A stretch of 64,000 nucleotides of DNA from Escherichia coli 042 (GTDB taxonomy: Bacteria > Pseudomonadota > Gammaproteobacteria > Enterobacterales > Enterobacteriaceae). Under the pieces are notes generated by a model. The model had not been told where the DNA came from, did not search any database, and worked only from the letters and a program-made list of their open reading frames with translations. Shown here in pieces: positions 2,098-60,266 of this stretch. Within the stretch, counting starts at the first letter, position 1. Each line of letters begins with the position of its first letter. Both the position numbers and the translations under genes were made by a program. The stretch lies in assembly GCF_000027125.1 (NCBI RefSeq), contig NC_017626.1. One strand, written 5' to 3'.

Positions 2098-2553
2098 GGG
2101 AGTTCTACCGCAGGGGCGGGGAACTCCAAGTGATGTCCATCATCGCATCCAGTGCGTCCGGTTTATCCCCGCTGACGCGGGGAACACACATGAATGTCGG
2201 TTCAGACCGTGTTTTTACCCGGTTTATCCCCGCTGGCGCGGGGAACACTCGTCGGCGTCTTCACCCGTCGCATAACGCTGCGGTTTATCCCCGCTGGCGC
2301 GGGGAACACTGCCAGCGTGTCGGCGTGCGTTTCGCGCTGCCCGGTTTATCCCCGCTGACGCGGGGAACACTCGATCGATAGCTGCGCGATACCTGCGGGG
2401 ATCGGTTTATCCCCGCTGACGCGGGGAACACGGCAGCTATCGAGGCAGTTATCGAGCGTCGCGCGGTTTATCCCCGCTGACGCGGGGAACACCAAAGGAC
2501 ACCGGGAGGCACCCGGCACCGCAGCGGTTTATCCCCGCTGACGCGGGGAACAC
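2098..2553 (-). CRISPR. CRISPR array (CRISPR2.1-type, cas-adjacent): 7 canonical 29-bp repeats plus one degenerate leader-distal repeat, 7 spacers of 32 bp
   Basis: Repeat CGGTTTATCCCCGCTG(A/G)CGCGGGGAACAC at about 2159, 2220, 2281, 2342, 2403, 2464, 2525 with exact 61-bp period; degenerate copy at about 2098-2126. Transcription inferred on the minus strand from the leader at 2554-2649. Confidence 0.95.
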
Positions 2554-6855: not shown

Positions 6856-8414
6856 TCAGCAGCCTCCTGCTTTTTCTCCCTGGCGGCTTTAGCACTTTGC
6901 TTCTCCGCCGATGTTGTAAAATATTTCTTGCGCGCGGTCATGACGCGTTTCAAATCAACGGGCTCATAAGGATTAGTGAATACACGCTCGTCAAAATCCT
7001 GACGCGCGAATAACCAAATTTCCTTTTGCCATTTGCCGAGTAATTCATCCGCATCCTGACCTTCTTCAATTTGGCGCACTAACCTCAGGAAGCGATGCTG
7101 AGTTTTGTTCCAGAAGTCGATATCCACAAAACTAAAATCACCCCGAGCACCTTTTGGATCGGAGAACCAGGCTTCTTTCAATGCACTCCGTAACAGACTT
7201 AGAATCCGTGAAGCCGTTTGCGCAACCAGCCGCAGCTTCGGTATCTGGCCTTCTTTTTTATTGAGCAGCAGCGGGAAATGGTGTTCGTACCAACAACGGG
7301 CTTTCATGTTGTCAAAATCATAACCAAATCCCCACAGGCCCACTTTTGTCTGCTTCAGACTGCTGGCATTAAAGAGTTTCACCACCAGCGCGGGAAGTTC
7401 CGTATTGTTTTCTGACTTACCCGTTTCGATAAGACCTAACCAGTCGCGCCAGATTAAACCGCCCGGTTGTGGTTTAACGGAGTAAAACTCACCGCCCTCT
7501 TTAAGTGGTACACGGTAAGGCGTTAAGGGATGCTGCCACATGGCATAATTCGCACCATAATTTTTGGTCGTCATCAGGCTCAGGAGCGAGTCATTCTGCT
7601 CGCCGCAAATATCGCAGTTGCCGACTGTCGTGGTATTAAAATCAATACGAATACGCCGCGGCATTCCCCAGTACGCCTGGAGTTTATTGACCTGATCATG
7701 GGTTACCACCGCACCGGCCAGTTCGCTGGTACGCGTCGGGCCAAGCCAGGGGAAAATCAGATCGTCAAATTTTTTGGGTAGCGGTAAGTCGGCTTCATCC
7801 TGCGGCATCACATTGAGCCACAGTTTGCGCCACAAGGGTGTTTGTTGATTGCCCTGATATTCCTGTAATTCAATCAGAGTGGTCATCGGCCCACCGCCGC
7901 GTAAACCGGTGCGATAGCCTTTGCCGCCTGACGGCGCATTTAACTGTAGGGAGAACAGAGCTAACGCAGAACAATGTGGGCACAGGTATTCCGTTACACC
8001 ACGCTTGATAAAGTGGTCTTTATTAAACTTCGTTGTTTGAGCGCCGGGAATCTCAGGCAGTAGCGAAGCGACCGGAATTTTATCTCCGGTGAGCGCCTCG
8101 AAATCCTGCATAAATGAAGGGGAATCTGGGCCAAACTGGAAAGCATGTTCTAAAGATAGCAATGCTTCCCGTAGCTTTTCAGCTTCCAGTCCGTCTTCCC
8201 AGATATCATCCCAACGACGATGATCTTTTGGCGCGAAGCTGGTTTGTAGTAGCCCCAGCAAAAACTGCCACGCCGCTCCCTGGAGATCTGCCCGCGGCGC
8301 AGCGATATCGACAACATTTTCATCCGCCAGATCGACTGGCGCCAGTTTGCCTGTTGTTCCGTCTTTAAAACGAACGGGCAACCACGGGGTTGTCAGAAGT
8401 GAAAACGAGTTCAT
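6852..8414 (-). CDS. casA: Cse1 / CasA (Cascade large subunit)
   Basis: Track ORF 6852..8483; I favour the start at MNSFSLLTTPWLPVRF (about 8414) with GAGAGG 6 nt upstream; the 8420 and 8483 starts remain possible. Size about 520 aa fits the Cse1 family. Confidence 0.8.
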   Translation of the reverse strand: MNSFSLLTTPWLPVRFKDGTTGKLAPVDLADENVVDIAAPRADLQGAAWQFLLGLLQTSFAPKDHRRWDDIWEDGLEAEKLREALLSLEHAFQFGPDSPSFMQDFEALTGDKIPVASLLPEIPGAQTTKFNKDHFIKRGVTEYLCPHCSALALFSLQLNAPSGGKGYRTGLRGGGPMTTLIELQEYQGNQQTPLWRKLWLNVMPQDEADLPLPKKFDDLIFPWLGPTRTSELAGAVVTHDQVNKLQAYWGMPRRIRIDFNTTTVGNCDICGEQNDSLLSLMTTKNYGANYAMWQHPLTPYRVPLKEGGEFYSVKPQPGGLIWRDWLGLIETGKSENNTELPALVVKLFNASSLKQTKVGLWGFGYDFDNMKARCWYEHHFPLLLNKKEGQIPKLRLVAQTASRILSLLRSALKEAWFSDPKGARGDFSFVDIDFWNKTQHRFLRLVRQIEEGQDADELLGKWQKEIWLFARQDFDERVFTNPYEPVDLKRVMTARKKYFTTSAEKQSAKAAREKKQEAAE

Positions 8415-8511
8415 ACGCATCCTCTCGTAAAAAAGACCATCCCAGGTCGGTTGTCCATCATTCCATCCTTTTGGGTGTATCAACTATTCAGAGAGCCCTG
8501 TCGCAGGCATC

Positions 8512-11169
8512 TCAACCAACCTTGCCAGTCAATCCTTCCATAGCCGAATACCCGCAACTTTCGTCATCGGTGACTAAAATCACGTTTGCCATCTCCGGAT
8601 CTTGCCGCTGTTCAATGCACCACTGCCTGAACGCATCCCCTTCCAGTAAAGAAAACTCATCCCGATGTTTTTTCCACCAGCTTCGACGCACTCTGACAAC
8701 GCTCATTTCCCATGCGTGAGCACCGGTGGCATAAGGCTTCACCACACCGTCAATACAGGTAGCCAGCCACAGGGAAACAGATTCCTCAGCCAGACGTGTC
8801 GACAGCTTTTCCGGAAGGTAATCGTTGATATTGGCGGCATAGCCAGGCTTGAAGTTCAGGACAAACTTTTTAGCCATTGCGCGATCGCAGTAATATTTGC
8901 CCACTTGCTCCTGCTCACTGCGGGCAAATCCTTCCGGCATTGCCACGTCTTCACCGTAGACTGATTCAATAAGAAGCCGGGCTGCGTGTGGCATCTGAAT
9001 AGCGCCTTGCTCACGCAGCACACGCTGCGTCAGCCAGATTCGCCCATGATCGGGGTAGACATATGCACTGTTACGCATGGCGCTGCCAAACCATTCGTCA
9101 CCCGGAGAGTCATCCCAGACGGGAGCCAGAATCAGCAATTCAGGAGGGGAACGCTCATCTTTTCCGTCACGCTTTAACTGACCATTAATATCGCGGATAT
9201 GCCGCTGTAATCGCCCCGCCCGCTGGATTAGCAAATCAATGTGGGCCAGGTCGGAGATCATTTCGTCCAGGTCACAATCGACGCTCTGCTCTAATACCTG
9301 AGTACAAATAAGGACTTTTCCGGCACGCTGTGAGTTACCTTCTTTACCAAAGCGTGCCAGCGTTTCCGTTTCAATTCGCTGGCGATCGCTAAAAGCAAAG
9401 CGGCTATGAAAAAGTGAAAGGCTGGAAGCGGGAATGACGCCGCGGGCAAGCAGCTGACGATGAACCTTAATAGCGTCATCGACAGAATTCCGGATCCAGG
9501 CGATGCATTTCCCCTGACTTACCGCCGATTCGATATGTGCAATACATTCTTGTTCGCTATGAAGCCAACCCACACACACGTTGCGCTCAACTTCTTTGCG
9601 CGTCGCTACCCGGTGCGAATGCAAATCGGATTTCGTGACATGCGTCAGCCATGGGTAATCATCCTTTTCAAGGAACGGAGCTTCTTGTTGGCCCTCTGCA
9701 CCACGCGCAAAGGCAGCGACGAGTTTGTCGCGCTGCTGTTGAGATAACGTAGCAGAAAGCAAAATGATACTGTTTCCGCCACGCGCCTGCCGCTCAATCA
9801 ATCCTTCAAGAATGCACGACATGTAAGCGTCACAGGCATGGATCTCATCAGCCAGCAGGATTTTTTTACTCAACCCCAGAAGCCGCAGATTATTATGTTT
9901 GAACGGCATCACCGCCATCATCGCCTGATCCAAGGTGCCGACGCCAATTTCAGCCAGCAACGCCTTCTTGTTACTGTCGGCAAACCAGGCCGCACATCCC
10001 TGGCTGAACGCTTGTTCATCCGGTTCTTCTGACCCGACTAAATCACCGGACCAGAGTGATTCATTGAAGCGGTCCATTAATGTATGGGCACTGTGTGCCA
10101 GCACCAGGCTGGGGCGGGATTCTGGCGAATAGAAAGCAAGCCAGGTTTTGACCAGCCGATCGTACATGGCATTGGCCGTTGCCATTGTTGGCAGGCCAAA
10201 AAACAAACCCTGAGCTTTCCCCGCAGCCATCAACCTGTGGACCATGATAAGCGCTGCTTCTGTTTTACCTGCGCCAGTCACATCCTCCAGAATAAATAAC
10301 TGTGGCCCAGGCTGGCTGATATCCAGATCCAGTACCTTTTGCTGTAACGGTGTCGGGTGCTCAATAAAAGGAAACAGTGTATTAATTCCGGTGAAAGGCG
10401 CGGTTTGTGCTTTTGGAGGAAAGACGGTTAAGGCGTTTTGAGCCTGAACTAAAGCCTTCTGCCAGTAATCTTTAATATCCATTGCCTGTGCAACGCGTGG
10501 AAAAAACCGCGTTGACGATCCCGTCCAGTCTGCGAGTACGACGGTTGCAGAGATATACCAGGAAAGTTGTTTTATAAGTTCAACGCCCTCGTCATCATCC
10601 CAGAATGTGGGGATCTCGATGAGCGGGAACAGTGTCTTGATTGCAAGGAGAAAATCTCGTGCGGCAGCTTTGTCTTCAGGCAGAAAATTATCCAGTTCAT
10701 CCATACGATCAGGAGGCTGACCATGATGCCCGGTAGTCATGGGCATCCACATCTCTATTACCCGTTTAAGTTTGCGGGGAGAGAGTGAAGATGAAGGAAG
10801 CAACTCTTCACATTCAATTAAATAATGATTCCACAACCAGTAGCCCAGCGTTGAATGAGAGATCTTTTCGTAATTTTTTCTTGCACTTTCCGGAACCTTG
10901 AGCTGTGGGTGCAGGTAAAGTTGCTGAAAAGAGCGGGCAAATTTTCCAGTATCGTGCCAACACAGCAACCAGGCGAAAAATTGTGCTGCCTGCTCCGTGT
11001 CAGCGATACCTAATTGACGAAAATAGTCAGCCAACCCGAAACAGTTGTTTTTGACCATTAAATAACCCGTCGCGGCTACATCCAGCGAATGCCAGCAAAG
11101 TAGATGATAGTCGTCGCCGCCCTCTTTCTCGCCACGTCGGGTTTTTCCCCAGAAATCAAAGAAAGTCAC
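8512..11169 (-). CDS. cas3: Cas3 helicase-nuclease (HD domain + DEAD/DEAH helicase), type I-E
   Basis: 885 aa; N-terminal HD motif (HSLDVA...H), helicase motif I (GAGKTEA), DExH-like LADEIH, motif VI QRAGRLQR. Confidence 0.93.
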   Translation of the reverse strand: MTFFDFWGKTRRGEKEGGDDYHLLCWHSLDVAATGYLMVKNNCFGLADYFRQLGIADTEQAAQFFAWLLCWHDTGKFARSFQQLYLHPQLKVPESARKNYEKISHSTLGYWLWNHYLIECEELLPSSSLSPRKLKRVIEMWMPMTTGHHGQPPDRMDELDNFLPEDKAAARDFLLAIKTLFPLIEIPTFWDDDEGVELIKQLSWYISATVVLADWTGSSTRFFPRVAQAMDIKDYWQKALVQAQNALTVFPPKAQTAPFTGINTLFPFIEHPTPLQQKVLDLDISQPGPQLFILEDVTGAGKTEAALIMVHRLMAAGKAQGLFFGLPTMATANAMYDRLVKTWLAFYSPESRPSLVLAHSAHTLMDRFNESLWSGDLVGSEEPDEQAFSQGCAAWFADSNKKALLAEIGVGTLDQAMMAVMPFKHNNLRLLGLSKKILLADEIHACDAYMSCILEGLIERQARGGNSIILLSATLSQQQRDKLVAAFARGAEGQQEAPFLEKDDYPWLTHVTKSDLHSHRVATRKEVERNVCVGWLHSEQECIAHIESAVSQGKCIAWIRNSVDDAIKVHRQLLARGVIPASSLSLFHSRFAFSDRQRIETETLARFGKEGNSQRAGKVLICTQVLEQSVDCDLDEMISDLAHIDLLIQRAGRLQRHIRDINGQLKRDGKDERSPPELLILAPVWDDSPGDEWFGSAMRNSAYVYPDHGRIWLTQRVLREQGAIQMPHAARLLIESVYGEDVAMPEGFARSEQEQVGKYYCDRAMAKKFVLNFKPGYAANINDYLPEKLSTRLAEESVSLWLATCIDGVVKPYATGAHAWEMSVVRVRRSWWKKHRDEFSLLEGDAFRQWCIEQRQDPEMANVILVTDDESCGYSAMEGLTGKVG

Positions 11170-11340
11170 AATGTTTTTATCCTTCAGTAAAACTTAAAGG
11201 ATATTTACGCATATATTAAAAATTATCTGTGATATATATCGTTCAATAAAACATTTACATTATGAATAATCAAATAGTTTTCATCCGTAATATATATGAA
11301 TAATAAACATAGGCATAATATTCACATAAACAATATAAAT
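11170..11340. promoter_or_regulatory. AT-rich cas3 upstream region (probable promoter / nucleoid-protein-bound region)
   Basis: About 170 bp of very AT-rich sequence immediately 5' of the cas3 start; H-NS silencing of E. coli cas promoters is established knowledge, its application here is inference. Confidence 0.5.
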
Positions 11341-11406
11341 TAAAAAAGGGTGCAGGAGACCAAACCATCACAATTCAGTACGCGGGGTTTTACCCCCGCG
11401 TGGTGG

Positions 11407-11559
11407 CTACTTCTTCGATTCGTAAGCGAGAACTGCCTTAAACTCCATACCACGTTCTCTGATACTCAACTCACACAACGAGTCGCCTACCATCAGCGTG
11501 AATCCCAGTACTGTACAACACAGTACGATGATTGCCACAAGGGCATATTTTGTCAGCAT
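11407..11559 (-). CDS. Hok/Gef-family type I toxin, 50 aa (HokE-like), unannotated small ORF
   Basis: Hand translation of the minus strand gives [50 protein letters not shown]; single TM helix, conserved Cys and C-terminal AYE motif, GGGAGG SD upstream, GC hairpin just 3' of the stop. Below the track size cut-off. Confidence 0.8.
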
Positions 11560-11823
11560 GTCTTGCCTCCCTGCAAAGAAGAGACTAACATTCGAATTGC
11601 TTAGGTTCGAACGCTGGCCTCAGGTTGATTGAAATATCGCCTGGGGCTTTTGTCCATCTGGAACCTCGCGAATGCTTAACGCCAGACAGCCTCAAGCACC
11701 CAACGCCATTCTATACCTGTTAATTTTCCCTGCGATGTTCACCTTTAAATGCCGGAATGCTGCTCGCAAAATAAAAACGCCCCCATCATTTCTGACAGAG
11801 GCGTTTAATTTATCCGGCAATAT

Positions 11824-24519: not shown

Positions 24520-24837
24520 AGTTAGCTCCAATTTCCGTAAGGCAAAAAAAAAGAAAGGTAACTTCCCCCGCGAGAGGGAAGTTACCTTTCTCATTATCTC
24601 TGGTAACTGGAGATAATTTTTATCATAAGGGCATAATCGCTAATGTGATCGTAATCACAGTGTTATATTCGAATTGTCAAATAATTTTAAAAAGCAGAAG
24701 CGTGATTACTCTCACACAACACCACTGCTTTCCATGTTATTTCTTATTGCAATTACTAGAGACCTGAGAAAAGTAATCCACCTGAAAGGGCGGCTTACTT
24801 TTCTCTTTTTTTTGTCTATTACAAATGGGAATACGAT

Positions 24838-27620: not shown

Positions 27621-27667
27621 GTGAGGAAGACCGGGCGGGAAACTGCCCGGCCTGAACATACCTGAAT

Positions 27668-27804
27668 GGTTATCCCCGCTGACGCGGGGAACATAAGTTC
27701 GACAACTTAAAAAATGATAACAAGTCCGGTTTATCCCCGCTGATGCAGGGAACATAATAAAAACTTTAACTAGTTCGGTTTATCCCTGTTTTTACAAGGA
27801 ATAT
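27668..27804 (-). CRISPR. degenerate CRISPR remnant (CRISPR2.2-like): about 3 decayed repeats
   Basis: Decayed repeat copies at about 27668 (GGTTATCCCCGCTGACGCGGGGAACAT), 27727 (CGGTTTATCCCCGCTGATGCAGGGAACAT) and 27776 (CGGTTTATCCCTGTTTTTACAAGGAATAT); spacing 59 then 49 bp. Confidence 0.7.
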
Positions 27805-28257
27805 TAACTACACTCGATGTCTTTAGAATAAAAGACAATACGAATCGCACTTTATCAATTTTCACTTAAAGTATGAACTGGATATCTTTATTCATAAGAA
27901 CTATTCATCAACAGCGTATAGAGGCGATTATGTAAAATCACTCATTAGCCTCAAAACAAAGACAAATTTCCAGATTTATTACTTAATCAATGAATAATAA
28001 GCTTAAAAAATACACTGTTATTCTAAAGAAAAAATTAACAGGCATTAATTAATATTAAAAAAATAATATATTAAAATTTCTTAACGATTTAAGAATCATA
28101 CAAATAACACTTTGATTAAATTTAATTTTTTGTATCGATAATTGTGAACTTCTCTGGCATGGAGAACTATTTTGAACATGAGGTGTTACGTGGATATGTT
28201 GCTTATTACAAGTACTGCTAATATAAAAACTTGAGAAAGAGATAACGGGTTATATGG

Positions 28258-28408
28258 TGGTTTATCCCCGCTGGCGCGGGGAACTCTTGGCATAGGCGCT
28301 ATAGCGGCGCTCTGTGTCCGGTTTATCCCCGCTGACGTGGGGAACTCAAAGACAAATTTCTTTGTTCCTATGGCCAGACCGGTTTATCCCCGCTGGCGCG
28401 GGGAACTC
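28258..28408 (-). CRISPR. CRISPR array (CRISPR2.3-like): 3 repeats, 2 spacers
   Basis: Repeats at about 28258, 28319, 28380 with 61-bp period, consensus CGGTTTATCCCCGCTGGCGCGGGGAACTC; the middle repeat carries GACGTGGGG. Confidence 0.9.
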
Positions 28409-28500
28409 TCTAAACATAACCTATTATTAATTAATGATTTTTTAAGCCAGTCACAATCTACCAACTTTACAGTATCACACAAACAACACATCCATTATGT
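28409..28500 (-). promoter_or_regulatory. CRISPR leader for the 28258-28408 array
   Basis: AT-rich, abuts the terminal repeat, shares AAACATAAC and CAATCTACCAAC with the 2554-2649 leader. Confidence 0.65.
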
Positions 28501-50096: not shown

Positions 50097-50141
50097 AAAG
50101 CAACCTCAATAAGAAAAACTGCCGCGAAGGATAGCAGGAAT

Positions 50142-50498
50142 AAAAAAAGGGAGCACTGTATTCACAGTGCTCCCGGTTCGTTTCGCAGCATTCCAGCTAC
50201 TTTTGTTGCTCCCTGCTCATCCTTGACAACTTTTCCTCTGGCCTTGCGGCCAATCGTTCATCCTGAACTATTGCTTCCTGCTCACACCACCCCGATGTGA
50301 TACTTCATCCTGAAGTGTCCCTGGCCTTCCTGGCCCACCGAATCATCCTGACCGGTTCTCATTCTCCATCCTGGAGGTGTCCTTTAACGCGTCCTGCGTC
50401 ATCCTCTTCGCTTCATCCAGAAGCCTTTCCCTGAAACACCATCCTGGTGTGTCCTTCAGAAGTGTCATCATCCTGATGTTCACTTCGTTGTCTGACTC
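50142..50498 (-). ncRNA. csrB: CsrB regulatory sRNA (CsrA-sequestering)
   Basis: About 357 nt with many CAGGATG / AGGA motifs (seen as CATCCTG on the + strand); 5' end GAGTCAGACAACGAAGTGAACATCAGGATG; 3' terminator GGGAGCACTG...CAGTGCTCCC plus U-tract. Track ORFs 50085..50300 and 50377..50565 lie inside it and are not coding. Confidence 0.95.
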
Positions 50499-59720: not shown

Positions 59721-60266
59721 TAGCTACCTCTCTCTGATTCAAAACAGGGCAATAATGTTGTTCCTTTCACACTATTGAATTAGCCGTTTAATTACCCACC
59801 ATCTTCTTCCTGATTAACAAGAAAGAAATTCACAAGCTTATATTTTGTGACCTGGTTCAACTAATCACAGTAAATAACTGCAACTTCTCTTTTTATAATC
59901 CCATTAAAAATGACCGCTCTTAAAAATATTTATCAAAACGGTCATTTTTCCATTCCCTCTCGCCAGAAATGCCCGTTTTCGGCACAAACAATTAATACGG
60001 TCATCGGGTTTGTGTTTTTTATGATTTATTTTCTGAAACGGGCATGAAATTTCGATTATTAAAGTGATGGTAGTCACATAAAGTCACCTCCCAGCTAATA
60101 AGTGTGACCGCCGTCATATTACAGAGCGTTTTTTATTTGAAAATGAATCCATGAGTTCATTTCTGACAGGCAAATATTCACTGATATGAAGCCCGAACTC
60201 GCTGGTTTTGCACTTTTGAAAACATAACCGATTACGTGCTTAAGCTTCTGAACCTAAGAGGATGCT
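59721..60266. promoter_or_regulatory. divergent fucAO / fucPIK control region
   Basis: About 545-bp AT-rich intergenic segment between divergent operons; FucR/CRP control is established knowledge, no sites mapped by me. Confidence 0.5.

Follow-up and report, generated by a model that had tools for sequence, protein, structure and literature searches.

What controls cas3 in the O157-type CRISPR-Cas locus of Escherichia coli, and what part is played by the extremely AT-rich DNA that lies in front of the gene? [quoted passage not shown] In a genome 99.8 % identical to it the genes, all on the minus strand, follow the order cysJ-cysI-cysH, a Hok/Gef gene, cas3, casA, casB, cas7e, cas5e, cas6e, cas1e and cas2e, and then the CRISPR array and iap. 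Based on this gene order, on the type-A array repeats (CGGTTTATCCCCGCTGACGCGGGGAACAC), on a counterpart in O157:H7 (region present at 89.7 % identity) and on the lack of homology to the K-12 cas3, the locus was assigned to the O157-type cas-EO variant of type I-E. This variant was described as having a Cas3 unlike that of K-12 and a type-A array between iap and cysH (PMC3737337), and was also named 'var. B-8552' (PMC12736100). The array of the window (2100-2553, type-A repeats with 61-bp spacing) is about 305 bp, or five repeat-spacer units, shorter than in the near-identical Ecol_316.

When the AT-rich DNA upstream of cas3 was delimited as a maximal-scoring AT segment, the block listed in Table 1 was obtained, with a GC content of 0.191 versus 0.505 for the whole window. 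The sequence-only reading had reported the slightly shorter interval 11170-11340 (GC 0.199) as an extremely AT-rich block upstream of cas3; the block was confirmed and lies far beyond chance expectation, and the AT-rich run quoted in that reading was found on the plus strand at approximately 11290-11347. Only 0.13 % of the equal-length windows in the 64 kb are as AT-rich, and a lower GC content was observed at one other place (27740-28265). TpA accounts for 16.9 % of the dinucleotides in the block and for 4.6 % window-wide, which places the block in the top 0.02 % of windows. It is the sole strongly AT-rich tract of the cas locus. Its flanks were also as claimed, with the cas3 ORF on one side and the 3' end of the hok mRNA, at about 11342, on the other. 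The block is bounded exactly by the cas3 start codon, GTG at 11169 on the minus strand, and by the U-run ending the hok mRNA, which forms its last 6-7 bp. An Rfam search at a permissive E-value found no RNA family inside the block. Elsewhere in the window, the CsrB sRNA (RF00018) was found at 50139-50498 on the minus strand (383.9 bits). The stretch at 27740-28265, the most AT-rich of the window (minimum GC 0.16), is flanked by two short degenerate CRISPR arrays (27663-27816 and 28259-28420) between ygcE and queE; 27663-28420 resembles the known CRISPR2.2/2.3 locus with its leader.

Table 1 Coordinates of the AT-rich block, its predicted elements and the neighboring features in the window
Feature	Position	Strand	Remarks
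AT-rich block	11170..11347	none	178 bp, GC 0.191 (19 %), 81 % A+T, TpA 17 %; single-copy in E. coli genomes
Proximal half of block	11170..11274	-	Conserved, 12 % variable columns (6 E. coli alleles); putative cas3 promoter, operator and leader
Distal half of block	11275..11341	-	Poorly conserved, 27 % variable columns among 6 E. coli alleles
cas3	8512..11169	-	885 aa, GTG start; ORF intact
Shine-Dalgarno GAAGGA	11180..11185	-	Ends 10 nt before GTG
T4 run	11189..11192	-	T3 in O157:H7 and other alleles (allele comparison)
Predicted hairpin AUAUCCUUU/UGAAGGAUA	11178..11204	-	-8.7 kcal/mol; would bury the cas3 Shine-Dalgarno
Candidate -10 AAATAT	11201..11206	-	Invariant in 8 Escherichia-group sequences
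CRP/FNR-family site TTGAACGATATATATCACAGAT	11225..11246	-	TCACA at 11232-11228; 8.3 bits (approximate CRP matrix)
Alternative sigma-70 candidate	11222..11250	-	-35 TTTATT, 17-nt spacer, -10 GATAAT (11227-11222); overlaps the CRP-like site
Full-length hok mRNA	11342..11701	-	RF01794 leader, hok ORF 11559-11407, 3' element GGUCUCCUGCACCC and U6 pairing with the 5' end
K-12 sokX-equivalent (Sok antisense RNA)	11599..11657 (approx.)	+	Coordinates transferred via K-12 alignment
Segment absent from cas-less E. coli	2089..11340	none	CRISPR array, cas2 through cas3, AT block; ~9.25 kb

The neighbor of the block was examined for its structure and orientation. The hok leader was matched by Rfam family RF01794 at 11701-11544 on the minus strand (109.6 bits; gathering score 59), and the hok ORF encodes 50 aa annotated as Hok/Gef. 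In the minimum-free-energy fold of 11701-11336 (366 nt), the 5' GGGUGC..GAGGC pairs with GGUCUC..GCACCC, which is followed by U6 at 11347-11342. Pairing of the 5' and 3' ends is typical of hok mRNAs. With leader, ORF and end pairing all found, the neighbor was classed, by these sequence features, as a complete member of the hok/sok type I toxin-antitoxin systems. It has the same architecture as chromosomal hok/sok (hokX/sokX), but it is a neighbor and not part of the block, which begins where the hokX/sokX-type mRNA stops. The hok gene had been described as convergent with cas3, so that its transcription could interfere with the cas3 promoter. This rested on a misread strand: the minus strand carries the hok ORF, the RF01794 leader, cas3 and cysH alike, hok being upstream of cas3 and co-directional with it, and Sok, the only plus-strand RNA of the hok module, runs away from cas3. 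The collision mechanism is refuted by this gene orientation, and we regard its probability as practically nil. What is left of the proposed interference is co-directional read-through, the only conceivable transcriptional coupling for two genes in tandem. No local hairpin was found next to the U-run in the fold of the hok 3' end, and leaky termination is therefore possible.

Several genomes are rearranged within hok. In E. albertii (locus L004, ~1600-1830) the hok mRNA is reduced to its final ~55 nt beside the AT block, comprising the stem-loop, the end-pairing element and the U-run, and unrelated sequence replaces the remainder of hok. In E. coli VTB97432v (locus L019) an IS4-like IS421 element interrupts hok just upstream of the AT block, and several other genomes lose homology at that same point, near window-equivalent 11396.

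Comparison with cas-less E. coli defined the cassette to which the block belongs. In these strains iap, hok and cysH are kept, homology to the window stops at 2088 and resumes at 11341, and ~48 bp of unrelated sequence stands in for the segment between. From these junctions, the array, every cas gene and the AT block are gained or lost together as one unit; by alignment the block forms the upstream, cas3-proximal end of the CRISPR-cas cassette, with the hok U-run as the boundary. The block adjoins this cas3 in every genome record examined. A 901-bp query around the block had a partial or better match in 5425 of the 5426 complete E. coli genomes and was at least 80 % covered in 2244, and a block-centered 301-bp query (11120-11420) was at least 80 % covered in 2768, O157:H7 included.

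From cysH up to the hok ATG the K-12 sequence is the same as that of the window, and beyond this codon the two diverge completely. K-12 has no homology to the cas3 of the window, and it carries its cas-EK cassette where the window has the hok ORF, the AT block and cas3. The K-12-type and O157-type cassettes part at a breakpoint exactly behind the hok ATG (window 11557-11559; K-12 locus L002); K-12 retained the hok leader and sokX and lost the Hok ORF. It had been suggested to check the block against published ChIP results for H-NS in the homologous region. However, K-12 has no homologous region, as homology ends at the hok ATG, and it was rejected as a source of ChIP or transcription start site (TSS) data; with a non-homologous cas3 promoter, such K-12 data are not transferable to the block.

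According to PGAP, the cas3 gene starts inside the block, at ATG 11212. It is called 'frameshifted' in the T4-allele genomes Ecol_316 and R32_14_1F, whereas an intact 899-aa Cas3 is called from the same ATG in O157:H7 and other T3-allele strains; the length of the T run sets the frame of this ATG and thereby the call. If these annotations were correct, part of the block would be coding and cas3 would be a frameshifted pseudogene here, which we consider very improbable. A start codon (GTG, TTG or ATG) was found at the position aligned to 11169 in 10 other taxa, and an in-frame upstream ATG occurs in at most two of them: in one (locus L025) it is the called start itself, two codons upstream, and S. 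bongori has two ATGs 6-7 codons upstream in a cas3 called in several pieces. In addition, a Shine-Dalgarno sequence precedes GTG 11169 and none precedes ATG 11212, the 14-codon extension is unconserved AT-rich sequence, and the 885-aa ORF is otherwise intact. Because of the position of the start codon across genera, we conclude that GTG 11169 is the true cas3 start and that the block is wholly non-coding, and the 'frameshifted cas3' pseudogene call is probably an artefact of the T3/T4 leader polymorphism.

For comparison of the upstream regions, cas3 orthologues (69-93 % identical) were collected from Escherichia sp., E. albertii, Pseudocitrobacter, Intestinirhabdus, Citrobacter, Klebsiella, Salmonella and Phytobacter, and more were obtained via protein look-ups. 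Short-fragment Cas3 matches added few useful upstream regions; one was a Shigella-like pseudogene (L027), and in Buttiauxella (L028) the immediate upstream neighbor is a CRISPR array. In most cases (Escherichia, Pseudocitrobacter, Citrobacter, Klebsiella, Salmonella and Phytobacter) about 150 bp at GC 0.1-0.3 precedes cas3. This holds whatever the neighbor is, cysH directly adjoining in Citrobacter and Klebsiella instead of hok. Within the block, the conserved cas3-proximal stretch measures 105 bp, and the distal half is largely deleted in Escherichia sp. L003.

When the upstream regions were aligned across genera, one conserved island was observed, xxxGA-N6-TCACA. The sequences were scored with an approximate CRP matrix, which gave 15.8 bits for the lac control. 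In 8 of 11 taxa the best match in the 200 nt upstream had its center 63-70 nt ahead of the start codon, and in the window, K. grimontii, Phytobacter and a Klebsiella-like contig this distance was exactly 66 nt. Phytobacter (17.1 bits) and K. grimontii (16.9 bits) scored above the lac control, and the range at the orthologous position was 7.4-17.1 bits across the other taxa and E. coli alleles. Individual shuffle p values were 0.03 or lower in six taxa. The window allele is weak by this approximate matrix (8.3 bits, shuffle p 0.18); its right half, TCACA, is perfect and its left half, AACGA, is poor. The O157 and AZ155 alleles reached 10.6 and 11.6 bits, respectively, on the same approximate scale. 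Three taxa of the 11-taxon scan, K. indica, C. youngae and S. bongori, lack the CRP-like site. For the Klebsiella sites (TTGAT-N4-ATCAT/C) the palindrome could be read as an FNR site; in Escherichia, CRP is favored over FNR because of the C of ATCAC.

The promoter prediction suggested by the sequence-only reading returned no call: no near-consensus sigma-70 promoter was found in the block, and the promoter and terminator scan found nothing there. A position-weight scan gave about 10 weak sigma-70 candidates per strand, as expected for AT-rich DNA. A -10-like hexamer was read 19-28 nt after TCACA in every taxon with the site. If AAATAT is the -10, the predicted +1 falls at about A11194 and the center of the CRP-like site at -41.5, a class II geometry. 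The conserved proximal half, the positionally kept CRP-type site and the conserved start codon with its Shine-Dalgarno sequence all point to a cas3 promoter in the block, in line with the original proposal, and the block is very probably the 5' regulatory region of cas3.

With moderate confidence, we favor the view that the block is a cas3 control region with a putative weak promoter at about 11194, assisted by cAMP-CRP and silenced by H-NS. RNA polymerase would start near 11194 from the weak -10 AAATAT with no -35 element, and cAMP-CRP bound at -41.5 would assist it. The 81 % A+T, TpA-rich DNA would nucleate H-NS filaments, and in ordinary growth these would silence the cas3 promoter together with the many spurious promoter-like hexamers on both strands. 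Transcription of hok, if any, would enter the block as co-directional read-through without a head-on collision.

An H-NS-silenced cas3 promoter in the block could also start further upstream, for example at about 11215 from GATAAT, with the palindrome serving as an operator through which CRP, FNR or another factor represses; with this -10 directly after the site, bound CRP would repress. We consider this arrangement unlikely, though several observations fit it. The GATAAT/TTTATT pair scores equal to any other candidate, a perfect TATAAT immediately follows the Phytobacter site, and CRP is cited as a repressor of the K-12 Cascade promoter in PMC4782391 and PMC8616872. The leader hairpins point the same way. 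The hairpin predicted in the window includes sequence upstream of the predicted +1 and would form only in transcripts starting upstream of it. Analogous anti-Shine-Dalgarno hairpins of different sequence were predicted in E. albertii, K. indica and C. youngae, and none in the K. grimontii and Phytobacter leaders. The predicted hairpins of 4-5 genera that bury the Shine-Dalgarno sequence would fall inside a transcript from about 11215, and those of several genera reach upstream of the predicted +1, which favors a more upstream TSS. However, Intestinirhabdus, Salmonella and Klebsiella lack a hexamer immediately behind TCACA, whereas all of them have one 19-28 nt downstream.

Another reading is that the block is functionless AT-rich DNA bordering a cassette that moved horizontally, with cas3 expressed by read-through from the hok promoter. 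The co-directional genes, the possible leakage at a hok 3' end without a local hairpin, and the variable, partly deletable distal half are all compatible with this. We nevertheless judge it improbable, as the proximal 105 bp are conserved and the position of the palindrome is kept in genera without hok upstream (Klebsiella, Phytobacter and Intestinirhabdus). In addition, cas3 of S. Typhi was reported as an independent, H-NS-silenced transcription unit with its own promoter (PMC8039139). A further idea, which we regard as quite unlikely, is that the K-12-type and O157-type cas3 promoters are independently under cAMP-CRP and that the leader of the O157 type shields Cas3 synthesis from transcription arriving from upstream. 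In the predicted hairpin the anti-Shine-Dalgarno arm would overlap the -10 to +1 region, so that the ribosome-binding site would be accessible only in transcripts from the proper promoter, and read-through from hok or spurious transcripts of the AT block would be translationally silent.

The favored reading, a cAMP-CRP-assisted cas3 promoter under H-NS silencing, was also considered from the side of H-NS. H-NS prefers DNA that is AT-rich over at least 100 bp and rich in TpA steps, and by its composition the block is a plausible silencing target. The block had been proposed as such a target both for its AT bias and for its curvature, and the second part failed. In the Bolshoy-Trifonov wedge model (29-41 degrees for phased A-tract controls and 6.4 for random DNA), the block gave a mean of 8.3 and a maximum of 16 degrees, the level of random DNA, and it was straighter than its own shuffles. 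Lang is said to have reported in 2007 a high-affinity nucleation motif for H-NS, tCGATAAATT (TCGATAAATT). No match to it with two or fewer mismatches was found in the block, the best being CGATATATAT with three. In K-12, cas3 transcription is under H-NS control in stationary phase (PMC4782391). The literature search yielded no usable H-NS ChIP, TSS or reporter data on cas3 of cas-EO, EHEC or O157 strains, and a K. pneumoniae study on H-NS and cas3 gives no promoter detail.

By analogy, the block is probably an ordinary AT-rich promoter region akin to the cas promoters of K-12 and S. Typhi, which are silenced by H-NS and modulated by CRP. The cas3-casA intergenic region of K-12 (IGLB) contains Pcas and anti-Pcas, which are H-NS-silenced and LeuO-relieved (Pul 2010 and Westra 2010, as cited in PMC4782391). 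Both are AT-rich DNA in a type I-E cas locus with weak promoters; H-NS control is expected here, and CRP acts in the IGLB too. However, the IGLB lies between cas3 and casA and the block upstream of cas3, and there is no sequence homology. The K-12 cas3 promoter, which is activated by CRP-cAMP and non-homologous to the block (PMC7019758), has the role proposed for the block, lies likewise between the hok/sokX remnant and cas3 and has a CRP-type site upstream of the start, as is predicted in the block. Its region is 134 bp long and less AT-rich, and its CRP footprint extends from -38 to -66, compared with the predicted center of -41.5 in the window. In Salmonella, Cas3 of S. enterica subsp. diarizonae is 69 % identical to that of the window and is preceded by AT-rich DNA with a degenerate palindrome at the same distance, but the upstream neighbor is different, the site reads TCAAA, and the site of S. 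bongori has a 1-bp insertion. We assumed that the S. Typhi cas3 is orthologous to that of the window and of the same group as that of diarizonae.

In the window itself, the cas3-casA gap (8415-8511) measures 97 bp, compared with 414 bp in K-12, and has an ordinary GC content. No sigma-70-like match was found in it, and at its end a weak hairpin (GACC..GGTC) and then T6 immediately precede the casA Shine-Dalgarno sequence. Inside the 3' end of cas3, at 8566-8587, ATCGGTGACTAAAATCACGTTT forms a strong CRP-like site (15 bits, approximate matrix); casA starts ~150 bp further downstream, at 8414, and the site may be part of a Cascade promoter. The best two CRP-matrix matches of the window are at 24641-24662 (18.7 bits), in the ygcW-yqcE divergent intergenic region, and at 60060-60081 (17.8 bits).

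Approximately half of the complete E. coli genomes (the 2768 counted above) carry this cas3 upstream region. The work on H-NS and CRP regulation of E. coli cas3 that we found was all on K-12, whose cas3 promoter differs in sequence. As the putative control region of the cassette itself, the block would show where to seek the cause of CRISPR-Cas silence in pathogenic lineages such as O157:H7, and the likely CRP-family operator predicted in it would narrow that search. In many genomes the 'frameshifted cas3' annotation is probably due to a polymorphism in the leader rather than to an inactive gene.
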